Virus record (IMG/VR): IMGVR_UViG_643886067_000001
Span: 1 to 41,177 of that record
Strand: one strand, 5' to 3'
DNA length: 41,177 nucleotides
Source of the DNA: a virus
Taxonomy: Duplodnaviria > Heunggongvirae > Uroviricota > Caudoviricetes
Of this stretch, positions 6,716-12,440 are shown one piece after another (positions within the stretch are counted from its first letter, which is position 1; every line of letters starts with the position of its first letter). The notes below the pieces were generated by a model. The model was not told the origin of the DNA and searched no databases. It worked only from the letters and a program-made list of their open reading frames with translations. The position numbers and the translations under genes were made by a program.

Positions 6716-6756
6716 GTAAAATCCCCGTCATATGGCAATCAGTAAAGGAAATAAAT

Positions 6757-7155: not shown

Positions 7156-7380
7156 TCAACACACTGGCTGTAATGCAGCGGATACCATGCGGCATTTAGC
7201 GGCATTCATCGTACACTCCACGGTTAGCTCTTCATTCGTGGCATTCACCTGAAAGGTCCGGGAGTGTAATTGCGTACATTTACCACTGAACGAACCTTCA
7301 ACAAGAACACGACCACGCTGCAAAATACGGAACGGAATTGTTCCCTGAAAAGGTTCTACGGTTACCCGTAATTTCTTCAT
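7156..7380 (-). CDS. Hypothetical protein
   Basis: 74 aa; ATG overlaps Rz stop (ATGA coupling). Confidence 0.35.
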
Positions 7381-7871
7381 GTATCCTCCGGATAATAAAA
7401 AGCCAGCTTAGTGCACTGAGTGCGGATATATTCCTGCGCCCCTTCCAGCTGCTTCTGCATTGTCATCAGCCGTTCTCTGAGGATGAAATAATCCCGTTCA
7501 GCGGTGTCTGCCAGTTGGGGGCCGGTTGCATTATCCACGCGGGCGGTGCCGGTGGCTTCACGCACGGGACCTGGACAGGTGGCGTTGATACGCAGGCGCT
7601 TACGACCAGCGGCAACGTCAGCGCGAAGAGTTTCATTTTCAGCTCTCGCATCGGCTAATTCCCTCGAGTATTTTGCATCGAGCGCAGCAACATCACGCTG
7701 ACGCATCTGCATGTCAGTAATTGCCGCGTTCGCCAGCTTCAGTTCTCTGACATTTTTGTCGCGCTGGGCTTTGTAGGTTATGGCGTTATCACGGTAATGA
7801 TTCAGCCCCAGACTAAGCGCACCACAGGCCACCAGCAGGGCAATGATGACCACGCACAGTACGCGGTTCAT
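7377..7871 (-). CDS. Rz: Spanin inner-membrane subunit Rz
   Basis: 164 aa; N-terminal transmembrane helix then coiled coil; contains embedded Rz1 frame. Confidence 0.85.
7466..7651 (-). CDS. Rz1: Spanin outer-membrane lipoprotein Rz1 (embedded in Rz, +1 frame)
   Basis: 61 aa; lipobox LVVSAC; proline-rich [23 protein letters not shown] closely resembles lambda Rz1. Confidence 0.8.
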
Positions 7872-7872
7872 T

Positions 7873-7971
7873 TCACCACCAGCGTATCTGACCGATGAAA
7901 TAACCGGAGGCCATAATCACAAACACCAGCCAGATAAGAATGAACTTCCAGGTGGATAATTTTTCAGCCAT
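7873..7971 (-). CDS. Putative 32-aa transmembrane peptide upstream of Rz
   Basis: [32 protein letters not shown]; GGGAGA 8 nt upstream of ATG; stop TGA 1 nt before Rz ATG. Not in ORF track (under 60 aa). Confidence 0.25.
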
Positions 7972-8049
7972 CACTCGAATCTCCCGAATCAGTTTGCTAA
8001 AATCAAACACACTTTCTCCTTTGACTTTTCCAGAGTCAGGAAACACAAA

Positions 8050-8080
8050 ACCCCGCTTGCAGCCAACAAACGGGGTTTTT
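8050..8080. terminator. Bidirectional hairpin between endolysin and Rz block
   Basis: CCCCG-cttgcagccaacaaa-CGGGG flanked by A-run and T-run. Confidence 0.4.
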
Positions 8081-8703: not shown

Positions 8704-8766
8704 GGATATTTATCAGGATTTATCGGTTTCTGCCCACGGACAGGTTTATCTGTTCCGGTCAGTGAA

Positions 8767-9117
8767 TTAAGGTTGTGATTCCGGTGGAGTCTTCAGAGAA
8801 CCAGTAATTCTTCCCGGTAGATTTCCTTTGTAGGTTATCCATACATTCTGCGCCTCTAAAATCACGGGGCGCTTTTCCGGCAACGGTTCGTTCCCTTCAC
8901 ATAACCCGGCAGCAACATCCATGAAAAACTGCTTCGCCTGCTTTTTCGCCTCAGCTTCGTAAAGCTCCAGCGTGGCACCTTCAGTACGGTCAAGACTAAT
9001 CGCCACATCTGGCAACAACAGTGACGGATACCCACCAACTTCCAGTGCCACAGTAACAGTAATCTTATCCGGGTAATTATTTATCCCTTTAACAACCAGT
9101 TCGTATTTTTTCTTCAT
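8767..9117 (-). CDS. Hypothetical protein inserted between holin and endolysin
   Basis: 116 aa; ATG with GGAGAG upstream; starts 4 nt after holin stop; no family recognised. Confidence 0.5.
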   Translation of the reverse strand: MKKKYELVVKGINNYPDKITVTVALEVGGYPSLLLPDVAISLDRTEGATLELYEAEAKKQAKQFFMDVAAGLCEGNEPLPEKRPVILEAQNVWITYKGNLPGRITGSLKTPPESQP

Positions 9118-9121
9118 CGCT

Positions 9122-9337
9122 TTACTCTCCCCGCGCCGCCTTACGCCGGTCCTCTCTGATTTTGAAATACAGGTTAGTCAGATATGTCAGCAGCCCAAAC
9201 AGCAGACTCCCCAGCACGCCTATTGCCGCCCACTGAGACGGGGAAACCCTGTCCAGCAACTGCAGGAACCAGTAGCCCGTTCCCACCGCTGACGTGGTGT
9301 ATGACACACCTGTTGTGATTTTTTCCATCTGGTACAT
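9122..9337 (-). CDS. S: Holin (S of 933W / EssD-like) with dual-start motif
   Basis: [28 protein letters not shown]...[13 protein letters not shown]; two in-frame ATGs (Met1, Met4) and GGGAGA upstream; track ORF extends further upstream to 9391. Confidence 0.85.
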
Positions 9338-9413
9338 ACCCCGTCTCCCGTTATCCGGAAGCTCACAACAATATAAAGACCACCGGCACACACCGATGGT
9401 CCCTTGCGCAGGC

Positions 9414-9659
9414 TTACATCATCATGTCGCTGTCAGGTGTGGGTTCACCGCCATCTGAAGCACTCCCGTCACCCGCGATACCTTCCGGCTCCGGAACCGC
9501 TGGTACGCCCAGCAGCTCATCCAGAATGGCATCCACTTCTGCATCAAGACGCGCCTCAAGGTTCTGGCGGAGTTTCTGTTTCAGTGCACTCCGGACTTCT
9601 TCAGAGCGCAGGACTTCCTTCACTGCCTCAGCAGTGACCAGGGATGTGATTTCTGACAT
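9414..9659 (-). CDS. Hypothetical acidic protein
   Basis: 81 aa from ATG 9659 ([17 protein letters not shown]...); weak ribosome-binding site. Confidence 0.35.
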
Positions 9660-9696
9660 GGGATTTTCTCGTTGAAAGGTGTTGTCAAGAAAGTGA

Positions 9697-9879
9697 CTAC
9701 GGAATGAGCGGATCTTCGGGTTTGCTTCCGGCTGACTGACTGGCGCTGATTCTCTCAGCGGCCCTTTTATCAATCTGCCTGCGCCAGAAATCGCGCACTG
9801 CCCTGTACCCACCCGAAAGAAGATACATAACACAGACTGCCGTACAGAAGTACAGCATCACCTGATGAATAAATGTCAT
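9697..9879 (-). CDS. Hypothetical small membrane protein
   Basis: 60 aa with one N-terminal hydrophobic helix; weak ribosome-binding site. Confidence 0.25.
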   Translation of the reverse strand: MTFIHQVMLYFCTAVCVMYLLSGGYRAVRDFWRRQIDKRAAERISASQSAGSKPEDPLIP

Positions 9880-10014: not shown

Positions 10015-11976
10015 TCATGCCGCGATGTCCGCGTTGTTCACTTCCACCTTCACACTGTCAATCAGCAGCGTATATGTCGCCGCCTTTGATATGCCTGTCA
10101 GTTGCAGTTTGTCCGCCGCCCCTGATGCCGGAGATTTCACCAGTGTGAACGGCGTCCCCCGTTTCTCATCCAGTACCGGCGTCACCTGAATGCTGTTGTT
10201 TCCGGCAAACTCAAAAGCCAGTGTGTGCCATCCGTTATCAAAGACCCCGAACGTATCCAGCTTCGCATTCGGCTTCTTGTGGTGCATCGCGTTCAGGTTC
10301 GTCGCATCCGTCTGCAGGAAGAAGGACATCAGCATGTCGTTGCCTTCCTCTGCCAGCGTCACTCCCTCCGGCAGGGACGACAACTGCCAGTAAATGCCCA
10401 GGGCAAACTGATTCGGCACCAGTGAACCCGGCAACTTAAACCGTACGCTCACACGTCCCCCCTTCTTCAGTAACTCCACTCCCTGTCCGGCTGCATCATG
10501 CTCCAGAAACCAGATGTGGTTTTCCGGTTTATTCAGTTGCAGGGCCTTACCTCCCGTAGCCCCCGCATCACTGACCACCGCTTCAGCAATGTTTTTGTTA
10601 ACATTGTCTCCGCTCGCCGGTTTGTGATAATAGCGCCAGCCCTGTGATGCCAGGTCTTCGCCGGACGCCAGCAGACTCATCAGGGTTCGGTTACTGACCG
10701 GGGCTTCCGGCTCTCTCTCCGTACCTTCACCGGAAGGTCCGGTGGGCTTCACCGTATCAGGCTGTTTTCCGGTAATGAATTCAGCGTTTCTCCCGGCATG
10801 CACAAGAATCGCCGTTGCCAGACGGTCGGAAATAATCCCACGACGTGCCCATGATCCAAAATGCGTTTTACGGTCAGCCGTCGTCCAGGTTTTGGCGTCC
10901 GTTCGACCACCGGCTCCGTAATACCCAATATCCGCAACATCCGGATCTTCTGACGGCTCGTTGGTACCCACATTTCGCCCGTTTTCATCCGTCATAAACG
11001 GCACAAAGAAGATTTTTTTTGCGGATTTCGTCTTGTATGCACCATACACCGCATCGTATTGCGAAGAATAAGTCTGCTTCCAGTAGTAGGTCGTGTCGCC
11101 ACAAATCCAGGGAACCGATGACGGAGAGCCCCCGAGACACTGACCTCCGAATTCCGACAGGTCAGAACGATATTTTTCCACCATGGAATCAAACAGCCCC
11201 GGCTGAGTGGCGTATGCACCCTGTTTCAAATCAAACTCGCCCTGCATCCAGACCACTGCAAGCAGAATATTTTTAGGGTTGGCCTTCAGTGCGGCCTGAG
11301 TACGGGTAAGCAGGTCCTTGTACAGTGGCTTATCTACACCCCAGCGTGCCGAGGTCTCGCTTGCGCCGGTGGATTCGCTGAAGGTACCTTCATCGCCCGC
11401 CAAAAATGCAGAACCACCACGGCAGCACGGAACCAGAAGAATACCGGCATTCGCCGGAATAAACGGCAACAATTTCTTCGCGATATGTAATCCCTGCCCC
11501 ACGCATCCATACTGAGCTGCGCTGGCTTTCGGGTGTGAAAACTTACTCAAATCCTGAACATCATGCAGGCAGTGGTCCGCAGGAATAATGTCATTGTAGT
11601 TACAGGACGCACCACCCGGCGTGACAGTGCTGCGACGCGCCAGCTGTTTAATACGCGGGTCCGGACGGTCATATGTCTCCGGCAGCGGAAGCCCTTCACC
11701 ATACGCCATACCGTTTGACTGCCCGGCCAGGGCAACAACAAAGTAATACTCCGGGTTGCTGGTGGTGCTGATAACTGCGCCTTCTCCATCCGACGGCTTC
11801 ACCACCACAGGTGTGGTGACATCACCTTCCGCCGCAATGGCCTGCATCAGGGTATAAGGCGTGATGGCCACCGGACTGCCAAATGGCTGCCACCCCTCCT
11901 TCAGTTTTTGTGTCAGTCGTTTCGCAAGGTCTGACGGCGATGCCGCCCTGACCACGTCATAGTGTTTAAATGCCAT
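10015..11976 (-). CDS. nanS-p: Prophage sialate O-acetylesterase NanS-p (DUF1737 + SGNH/SASA hydrolase + C-terminal domain)
   Basis: 653 aa; N-terminal DUF1737-like MAFKHYDVVRAASPSDLAKRL; SGNH motif ALAGQSNGMAYGEG; strong GGAGG site; sits between the tRNAs and the lysis cassette as in EHEC prophages. Confidence 0.85.
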   Translation of the reverse strand: MAFKHYDVVRAASPSDLAKRLTQKLKEGWQPFGSPVAITPYTLMQAIAAEGDVTTPVVVKPSDGEGAVISTTSNPEYYFVVALAGQSNGMAYGEGLPLPETYDRPDPRIKQLARRSTVTPGGASCNYNDIIPADHCLHDVQDLSKFSHPKASAAQYGCVGQGLHIAKKLLPFIPANAGILLVPCCRGGSAFLAGDEGTFSESTGASETSARWGVDKPLYKDLLTRTQAALKANPKNILLAVVWMQGEFDLKQGAYATQPGLFDSMVEKYRSDLSEFGGQCLGGSPSSVPWICGDTTYYWKQTYSSQYDAVYGAYKTKSAKKIFFVPFMTDENGRNVGTNEPSEDPDVADIGYYGAGGRTDAKTWTTADRKTHFGSWARRGIISDRLATAILVHAGRNAEFITGKQPDTVKPTGPSGEGTEREPEAPVSNRTLMSLLASGEDLASQGWRYYHKPASGDNVNKNIAEAVVSDAGATGGKALQLNKPENHIWFLEHDAAGQGVELLKKGGRVSVRFKLPGSLVPNQFALGIYWQLSSLPEGVTLAEEGNDMLMSFFLQTDATNLNAMHHKKPNAKLDTFGVFDNGWHTLAFEFAGNNSIQVTPVLDEKRGTPFTLVKSPASGAADKLQLTGISKAATYTLLIDSVKVEVNNADIAA

Positions 11977-12158
11977 GAATCCTCCCGGCCGGGATAATAT
12001 TGTGAGTAAAATAAGGAGCGGGCTGAAGTCCGGAAGTTACAGGACAATGGCAGAAGAGAGACGACAGCCCGCAATTCGAAAAAGACCGCGCAGTTGCGCA
12101 GCCTTATGAATTCTGGTTAAAATCCATTCGATTATAAAAATGTATATCTCATGCTGTT

Positions 12159-12183
12159 GCCCGAACCCACTCGGGCTTTTTTT
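12159..12183 (+). terminator. Plus-strand intrinsic terminator-like hairpin
   Basis: GCCCGA-acccac-TCGGGC followed by TTTTTTT. Confidence 0.4.
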
Positions 12184-12184
12184 G

Positions 12185-12440
12185 CCCACAAGAAAGCCCC
12201 TCCGGAGAGGGGCTAAAGCCGCGTATCTGTATCATCATGCACATGGTGCCGGGTGCCTCCCGGTGAGTTCAGCCCGGTGCCACTAAACCCGCGTCATTCT
12301 CGTTTTGATAATCAGAGATTATACCGTCACCAGTCGCCCCTCCGCTCAGGGGGATTCACCATGCGAAATTTTTTTAACAAATGCCCAGTCTGACAGGCAA
12401 CTGTCAACTTACTGAATTGTGAGCAACATAGCATTTAACG
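12185..12440. repeat. Structured non-coding direct repeat, copy A
   Basis: Shares with copy B: hairpin AGCCCCTC-cgga-GAGGGGCT, GCATGGTGCCGGGTGCCTCCCGGTGAGTTCAG, CCCCTCCGC(T/A)CAGGGGGATTCACCATGC, CAAC(T/A)GTCAAC, CTGAATTGTGAG. Confidence 0.5.

Follow-up and report, generated by a model that had tools for sequence, protein, structure and literature searches.

What does a separate gene of 116 codons do between the holin gene and the endolysin gene of a lambdoid lysis cassette, and does its product take part in lysis? The locus lies in a stretch of 41,177 nucleotides, positions 1 to 41,177 of the tailed-virus record IMGVR_UViG_643886067_000001, which was analysed at its full length and is called the window below. 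An earlier note on this DNA had described the open reading frame (ORF), its ribosome-binding site and its spacing to both neighbours, and had proposed either a lysis regulator, such as an antiholin or an endolysin modulator, or a moron expressed together with lysis. Its coordinates, the length of 116 aa, the GGAGAG site and the spacings of 4 nt and 63 nt all agree with the sequence. The features of the locus and the length forms of the gene family are collected in Table 1.

Position, family and predicted structure

The target ORF starts with the ATG at 9117..9115 on the minus strand. The holin stop TAA at 9124..9122 is followed by AGCG (9121..9118) and then by this ATG, and therefore the ORF begins 4 nt past the holin stop. 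The GGAGAG in the end of the holin gene stands 7 nt upstream of the target ATG and is used by ydfR here and by R in phages without ydfR. At its other end, the ORF is separated from the endolysin ATG (8703) by a 63-nt spacer at 8704..8766. In sequence scans, nothing resembling a promoter turned up near the ORF and nothing convincing as a terminator behind it; the lone hit, inside the ORF, is weak (6 pairs, 3 of them G-C). The closest strong hairpins are at 9404..9375, upstream of S, and at 8079..8047, downstream of R. No Rfam RNA family was found inside the ORF or the spacer.

Table 1. Features of the lysis locus in the window and length forms of the YdfR family
Feature	Position	Strand	Length	Basis
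NanS-p-like SASA esterase	10015..11976	-		
DUF826 gene	9414..9833	-		
P21-type class II holin S, Met codons 1 and 4	9122..9337	-	71 aa	PF04971 E 9e-33; dN/dS 0.07
Shine-Dalgarno GGAGAG in last holin codons	9125..9130	-		sequence and junction alignment with and without ydfR
YdfR-family (DUF1327) gene, short allele, phrog_406 type	8767..9117	-	116 aa	ORF list; PF07041; PHROGs; 100% DNA match
Conserved core, codons 1-72: three beta strands and a long helix (predicted), (F/Y)YE motif	8902..9117	-		
Module EKRPxILEAQxVWITYKGxLPGRITGSLKTPP, codons 73-112, a linker in long forms	8782..8901	-		
Allele-specific end: last 4 codons (ESQP), stop and most of the 63-nt spacer	8704..8781	-		
SAR-type endolysin R (phage lysozyme)	8170..8703	-	177 aa	PF00959 E 5e-24; dN/dS 0.08
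57-codon ORF	7873..8046	-		
Rz	7377..7871	-		
Rz1	7466..7651	-		
Family form: core and EKRP...TPP module, ending soon after (116 aa in the window)			112-116 aa	
Family form: core, EKRP...TPP module and coiled-coil segment			176/183 aa	
Family form: core and K-12 tail			103 aa	
Family form: core alone, e.g. phage Evi			72 aa	

The flanking genes are a holin and a SAR endolysin, as the earlier note had them, by their Pfam matches and by the hydrophobic N-terminus of the endolysin, whose 19-residue Kyte-Doolittle maximum of 1.74 from residue 9 fits a SAR endolysin. The holin N-terminus reads MYQMEK..., with Met at 1 and 4 like the dual-start S21 71/68 pair, and its extension carries no basic residue; the S21-71 extension carries a lysine. 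The DUF826 ORF upstream of S has 139 codons from a GTG start and is annotated with 81 aa in identical genomes; its N-terminal extension is probably untranslated because the Pfam model matches residues 59-133 only. In identical contigs, the 57-codon ORF ahead of Rz (phrog_6632) is called from an inner ATG and has 45 aa. A single strong transmembrane segment spans its residues 36-54 (Kyte-Doolittle 2.13), its stop lies 1 nt ahead of the Rz ATG, and it is preceded by a 14-bp G+C-rich hairpin with a T run (8079..8047, minus strand); its position and topology would suit a membrane lysis modulator better than those of ydfR. Upstream of the NanS-p-like esterase, within 12129..12393, stand Rfam matches to AsxR, an anti-stx2 sRNA (63 bits, at its gathering score, plus strand), to the related AgvB (43.4 bits, below the gathering score of 56, plus strand) and to STnc100 (165 bits, minus strand). 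Such elements are typical of the late-promoter region of Stx-type prophages; the window prophage itself is without stx.

The target ORF is no chance reading frame, having a full-length Pfam match, a repeated context and, between divergent alleles, the lowest dN/dS of the three frames. Its product matches PF07041 (DUF1327) with 149.6 bits against a cut-off of 25 (E 2.9e-44), residues 1-112 aligning to positions 1-92 of the 93 in the profile, and PHROGs families 406, 2091 and 1085 with E-values of 1e-61 to 1e-64 (7.6e-63 for phrog_406), all three listed as function-unknown. DNA that is 100% identical occurs in E. coli SCU-387, where the gene is annotated as 'YdfR family protein' (WP_000731250.1) in a stx-less lambdoid prophage with a TerB gene at the place where Stx-converting phages such as BP-4795 carry stx. 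In the RefSeq record of BP-4795, the order is likewise S, YdfR family protein, R, and the assembly collection lists the identical protein in 178 blocks, in the same context every time. The earlier note had recognised no family here; the Pfam domain, the RefSeq name and the same layout in the Qin prophage of K-12 identify the gene, at the level of sequence, as a member of the already catalogued YdfR/DUF1327 prophage family, for which a K-12 name exists. No NCBIfam model matches the target protein, and PADLOC gave no defence-system match for it, for the long forms or for the convergent partner genes described below.

E. coli K-12 YdfR (b1555, P76160), from the cryptic prophage Qin, is like the target a PF07041 member, and its gene likewise begins 4 nt past a class II holin gene, essQ, and directly precedes the lysozyme gene rrrQ. 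The core, 45% identical over residues 1-78, is the only part common to the two proteins: K-12 YdfR has 103 aa and an unrelated tail (SEKVESYLQHQ...), whereas the 116-aa target ends in the EKRP...TPP tail. The K-12 ydfR stop overlaps the rrrQ start (ATGA), in contrast to the 63-nt spacer before R in the window.

The target protein is soluble. The absence of a signal peptide or transmembrane segment stated in the earlier note holds in a 19-residue Kyte-Doolittle scan, which found neither and gave a maximum of 1.16, compared with 1.70 for the holin and 1.74 for the endolysin; the pI is 5.5. A first AlphaFold2 model from a shallow alignment reached a pLDDT of 53.5, with residues 73-116 below 50, and was set aside for a core-only model with distant homologues added (pLDDT 90.5), which predicts strands at residues 5-14, 18-27 and 37-43 and a helix at 50-73. 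The target core has the Y-E-L-x-V-K start and the (F/Y)YE motif of DUF1327, and Y5, L7, V9, Y53, E54 and A57 are invariant or nearly so across 30 sequences, including those from Citrobacter and Cronobacter. Foldseek searches of the core against PDB and BFVD returned nothing at E <= 0.001, and sequence searches of PDB with the family profile and with a long form returned noise only (E above 0.3), so that no match to a solved structure was found for either fold or sequence. As modelled, the core is a simple fold without an informative structural relative.

An optional, modular and fast-evolving gene

The gene is widespread and optional. By blastn, its DNA has matches in 3157 of 5426 complete E. 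coli genomes (58%), at 6733 places, nearly all chromosomal and up to 8 in a genome. Among phage records, 101 encode a YdfR relative compared with 434 that encode a P21-type holin, the gene being missing from ~77% of the latter. Carriage differs by phage group: ydfR is found in 41 of 47 Stx1a-converting phages, in 15 of 17 of the Stx2c group and in 2 of 124 of the Stx2a group. Wherever it occurs in the Escherichia loci examined (K-12, BP-4795, mEp460, Evi, PhiR40_1 and ~80 IMG/VR loci), ydfR stands exactly at the S-R junction and starts 4-8 nt past the S stop.

The junction of the Stx2a record Stx2a_WGPS9 shows the state without the gene. Its S and R are 98.6% and 92% identical to those of the window, and its R begins 4 nt past the S stop, with the same GGAGAG in use; ydfR is therefore an insertion/deletion polymorphism at a precise junction. 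In the junction alignment, the left boundary of the polymorphism is the S stop and the right boundary falls inside the first ~10 codons of R, the N-terminus of R reading MN(A/T)KIRYG after ydfR and MSRKLRYG without it. Cassettes are otherwise complete both with ydfR (mEp460, Evi, PhiR40_1, BP-4795) and without it (one Stx2a record), and, judged by gene content, ydfR is dispensable for lysis cassettes. The earlier note had named absence from close relatives with the same flanks as a finding that would speak against the gene. Such an absence is what Stx2a_WGPS9 presents, and it counts against an obligate lysis role; the reality of the gene is untouched by it, given the Pfam match, the 178 blocks and the lowest dN/dS in the annotated frame. 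The suggested moron expressed with lysis comes close to the reading favoured below: presence or absence at a precise junction fits that description, but ydfR lacks its own promoter and terminator.

In alignments, a constant core of ~72 residues is joined to at least four different tails. The core is common to K-12 YdfR and to stand-alone homologues of 72-76 aa, whereas the module of codons 73-112 is present in forms of 114-385 aa and absent from the K-12 type and from core-only forms; this module has a pLDDT below 50 and a dN/dS of 0.23-0.52. Long ORFs behind S in IMG/VR have 263-268 aa (18 loci), 296 aa (26 loci) and up to 385 aa, proportions that are not representative since the IMG/VR loci were chosen by an N-terminal peptide pattern. 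These long forms (phrog_1085, 263-385 aa), found in lambdoid prophages and IMG/VR, share the S junction of the window and differ from the window allele in carrying a coiled-coil segment and an uncharacterised C-terminal domain (EWECNRPSFVVSGD...LTYLKVRI), ~185 residues that the window allele lacks. Examples of 296-385 aa with both parts are L049 2998-3891, L031 2032-3189 and L045 3001-3990, where the C-terminal domain has ~130 residues. The C-terminal domain has no function in Pfam, PHROGs or NCBIfam, no PADLOC match and no PDB match.

From the end of S through codon 112, the window DNA shows ~91-96% identity to the compared forms of 176-330 aa and ~90% to the phrog_1085 forms. Past codon 112, the homology to long forms breaks off; it resumes 6-28 nt before the R ATG, and ~72 nt of unrelated window sequence stand in for ~585 nt of the 296-aa form. 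The window gene thus represents a short allele in a family built of modules. Many alleles occupy the S-R junction, a cargo slot in which a gene is to be expected. One 1.7-kb contig (L094 608-946) encodes a 112-aa protein, P0241, with the coiled-coil segment first, the EKRP...TPPKW module last and no core; its gene adjoins TerB/DUF3927 genes upstream of a Phage_holin_8 gene, and P0241 is either a permuted module or a rearranged fragment.

Pooled Nei-Gojobori estimates over codons 1-112 of 24 unique close alleles gave a dN/dS of 0.65 for ydfR and of 0.70 and 1.10 for the other two frames. At the same loci, S and R each have a strong frame signal and the low ratios given in Table 1. Between divergent alleles, the core has a dN/dS of 0.25-0.43, lowest in the annotated frame. 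The gene thus codes for a protein that evolves several-fold faster than its neighbours. By length of ydfR, the ratio is 0.66 for short, 0.65 for middle and 0.87 for long forms; the short allele is not specially relaxed because the mid-length and long forms are equally high.

An exhaustive profile search of 1.84 billion representative proteins returned no more than 89 hits, some of which are stand-alone proteins of 72-94 aa with the entire core aligned, and the sources of core-only homologues in a second search include Citrobacter freundii and Cronobacter dublinensis. The core-only homologues with context examined (taken from IMG/VR and from the contigs that encode them) all lie outside lysis cassettes, in lambda-like tail modules of Citrobacter freundii, IMG/VR viral contigs and metagenome assemblies, at positions after the tape-measure gene, between gpM and gpL, after gpL, and after gpI before gpJ. 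The core domain is therefore not intrinsically tied to holins or endolysins. A small convergent gene follows each core-only homologue (L004 3001-3576, L005 3001-3486, L087 3501-4053, L090 3501-4006 and L091 3501-4321), and identity between the partners of L004 and L087 is 38% (E 9e-19), pointing to a conserved cargo unit of two genes. Phage Evi has an unrelated partner gene (L085 1744-2040).

Lysis timing, decay and initiation of R

The fixed place of ydfR in Escherichia invites the idea of a role in lysis. A trans-acting regulator, that is, a cytoplasmic modulator of the pinholin or of SAR endolysin release comparable to T4 RIII, would set lysis timing; none of the Escherichia loci examined has the gene anywhere but precisely at the S-R junction, with its Shine-Dalgarno embedded in S, and its protein would therefore be made together with the holin. 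Against such a regulator stand the absence of the gene from most phage records with a P21-type holin, including one with nearly identical S and R, the lack of a membrane segment, the distant homologues in tail modules with no holin nearby and a protein-level constraint that is weak compared with that on S and R; in addition, overexpression of K-12 ydfR gave no growth or lysis phenotype. Nor does ydfR have the marks of an antiholin, as it is a separate ORF rather than a dual-start product of the holin frame and does not consistently co-occur with a holin partner. The antiholin or endolysin modulator of the earlier note thus finds no support in a gene that is often absent, a product without a membrane segment and relatives in tail modules, and we consider a trans-acting lysis regulator decidedly unlikely. 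The literature searched yielded no lysis study of DUF1327, ydfR or essQ/rrrQ. The Keio ydfR mutant is in the supplementary hit lists of an envelope-leak screen, with no follow-up (Paradis-Bleau et al., 2014); by our reasoning, this hit could be a polar effect on the downstream lysozyme gene rrrQ.

Lysis could also be affected by the DNA rather than by the protein, the insertion of ydfR separating R from a strong Shine-Dalgarno and so setting a different, probably lower or coupled, level of endolysin. In the window, R starts behind an AU-rich leader (...CUGAUAAAUAUCC AUG) without a Shine-Dalgarno, and the ydfR-positive loci (~80 examined) have ...CTGATAAATATCC-ATG or ...AATATTTAATATATCC-ATG before R and no GGAG-like motif, whereas R is preceded by GGAGAG-N7-ATG in the one ydfR-negative locus examined. 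These sequences suggest two classes of pinholin/SAR cassettes that differ in the initiation context of R, a difference that favours an effect in cis, as does the stop-start overlap of K-12 ydfR and rrrQ. The AU-rich leader is conserved before R, at 8704..8730 in the window and also, e.g., at loci L048, L018 and L097. However, the 63-nt gap of the window is too long for tight coupling of termination and reinitiation, the RNA structure of this spacer is not significant against shuffled sequence (z 0.16), and a purely cis role would not conserve a 72-residue fold across genera. AU-rich leaders can also initiate well without a Shine-Dalgarno, which we counted against this explanation. We give a main effect in cis only a slim chance; if it were true, the two classes of cassettes would have different lysis kinetics, with a bearing on the timing of toxin release.

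A third possibility concerns function as such. The protein of 263-385 aa (phrog_1085) may be the functional one, and the 116-aa ORF a drifting 5' stump left by a deletion. The homology to long forms that stops at codon 112, with the ORF ending 4 codons on, agrees with a remnant, as do the many length variants, fusions and truncations and the dN/dS of 0.65 with three frames that are barely distinguishable in close alleles. But the ratio is equally high in the long (0.87) and mid-length (0.65) forms, and for this reason specific decay of the short allele was rejected as the main reading. Furthermore, the forms of 114-116 aa are the most populous clusters, with the reading frame intact in hundreds of genomes, phage Evi as well as other genera have core-only genes of 72-76 aa, and divergent alleles give a dN/dS of 0.25-0.43. 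A decaying remnant therefore appears improbable to us, though less so than either effect on lysis.

Proposed accessory cargo and a possible host target

Our preferred reading is that ydfR encodes a late-expressed accessory protein that binds a host factor and has no part in lysis, and to this reading as a whole we give an even chance. The protein, small, acidic, soluble and cytoplasmic, would be produced from the Q-dependent late transcript in the late phase of lytic growth, its translation starting directly behind the holin from the Shine-Dalgarno in the last holin codons. It would be accessory cargo in the lysis cassette rather than a working part of the holin, SAR-endolysin and spanin machine. 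The 72-residue core most likely serves to bind some cytoplasmic factor of the host, and the variable C-terminal modules, such as the 44-residue tail of the window allele, may tune or extend its activity. Against this reading, the fixed S-R position in Escherichia could mean a lysis-linked role rather than history, and a dN/dS of 0.65 that barely depends on frame in close alleles is also what drift of a dispensable gene gives.

The only experimental lead to the host factor comes from K-12. A bacterial two-hybrid screen with RNase G yielded residues 1-72 of K-12 YdfR; RNase E constructs gave a stronger interaction, and full-length YdfR scored positive with Rne 1-597 (Göpel et al., 2026, PMC13232886). 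Strep-tagged YdfR co-purified Rne 1-598-FLAG together with DNase-resistant nucleic acid, although the signal was weak and construct-dependent and the co-purification could be RNA-bridged (PMC13232886). Overproduction of K-12 YdfR barely changed the transcriptome and left growth unaffected, and ydfR has almost no reads in growing cells (PMC13232886). The same study discusses RapZ as a cellular binder of the Rne N-terminal domain (PMC13232886). By analogy with the K-12 protein, we infer that the target protein may bind RNase E or RNA and that this may matter for the phage; binding to the RNase E catalytic half and/or to RNA would give the phage a means of adjusting RNA decay in late infection. 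That RNase E or RNA is the actual target is a tentative idea, which we hold to be rather unlikely. With no more than 45% identity between the cores of the window protein and K-12 YdfR, the RNase E result may not transfer, and the acidic core (pI 4.6-5.3) would be unusual for a direct RNA binder.

Extended to the family, this lead would make YdfR proteins widespread late proteins of temperate phages whose core docks on the RNase E catalytic half (or RNA) and whose swappable modules redirect or blunt RNA decay while the late transcript is expressed. We regard this broader proposal as unlikely. Were it true, the rapid evolution and the exchange of modules would be signs of an ongoing conflict with the host or with rival prophages, and, with matches in 58% of complete E. 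coli genomes at up to 8 places each, the family would modify RNA metabolism very commonly when prophages are induced. Shiga-toxin phages would be among them; in most of the Stx1a and Stx2c records counted above, ydfR lies in the late operon beside the genes for toxin and virion release. If the association with RNase E or RNA is real and general, it would be the first RNase E-directed function in lambdoid phages, as we know of none described so far. The locus is otherwise ordinary for such prophages, and its interest lies in the abundance of the family, in its modular, fast-evolving design and in the recent RNase E lead.

Among known lysis proteins, T4 RIII is a small cytoplasmic antiholin cofactor, and S21-71, T4 RI and P1 LydB are membrane antiholins. 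Like these, ydfR is small, lies in or next to the lysis genes and is timed with the holin; it differs in having no membrane segment, in being mostly dispensable and in having relatives outside cassettes, and it is set apart from them on these features rather than by direct sequence comparison. On the side of the host target, T7 gp0.7, T4 Srd and phiKZ Dip are phage-encoded RNase E modulators and represent an established kind of host takeover. These known modulators belong to virulent phages, and most target the C-terminal scaffold of RNase E or work by phosphorylation. K-12 YdfR is instead reported to bind the N-terminal catalytic half; what it shares with gp0.7, Srd, Dip and RapZ, as reported, is the targeting of RNase E, and it has no sequence relationship to them.
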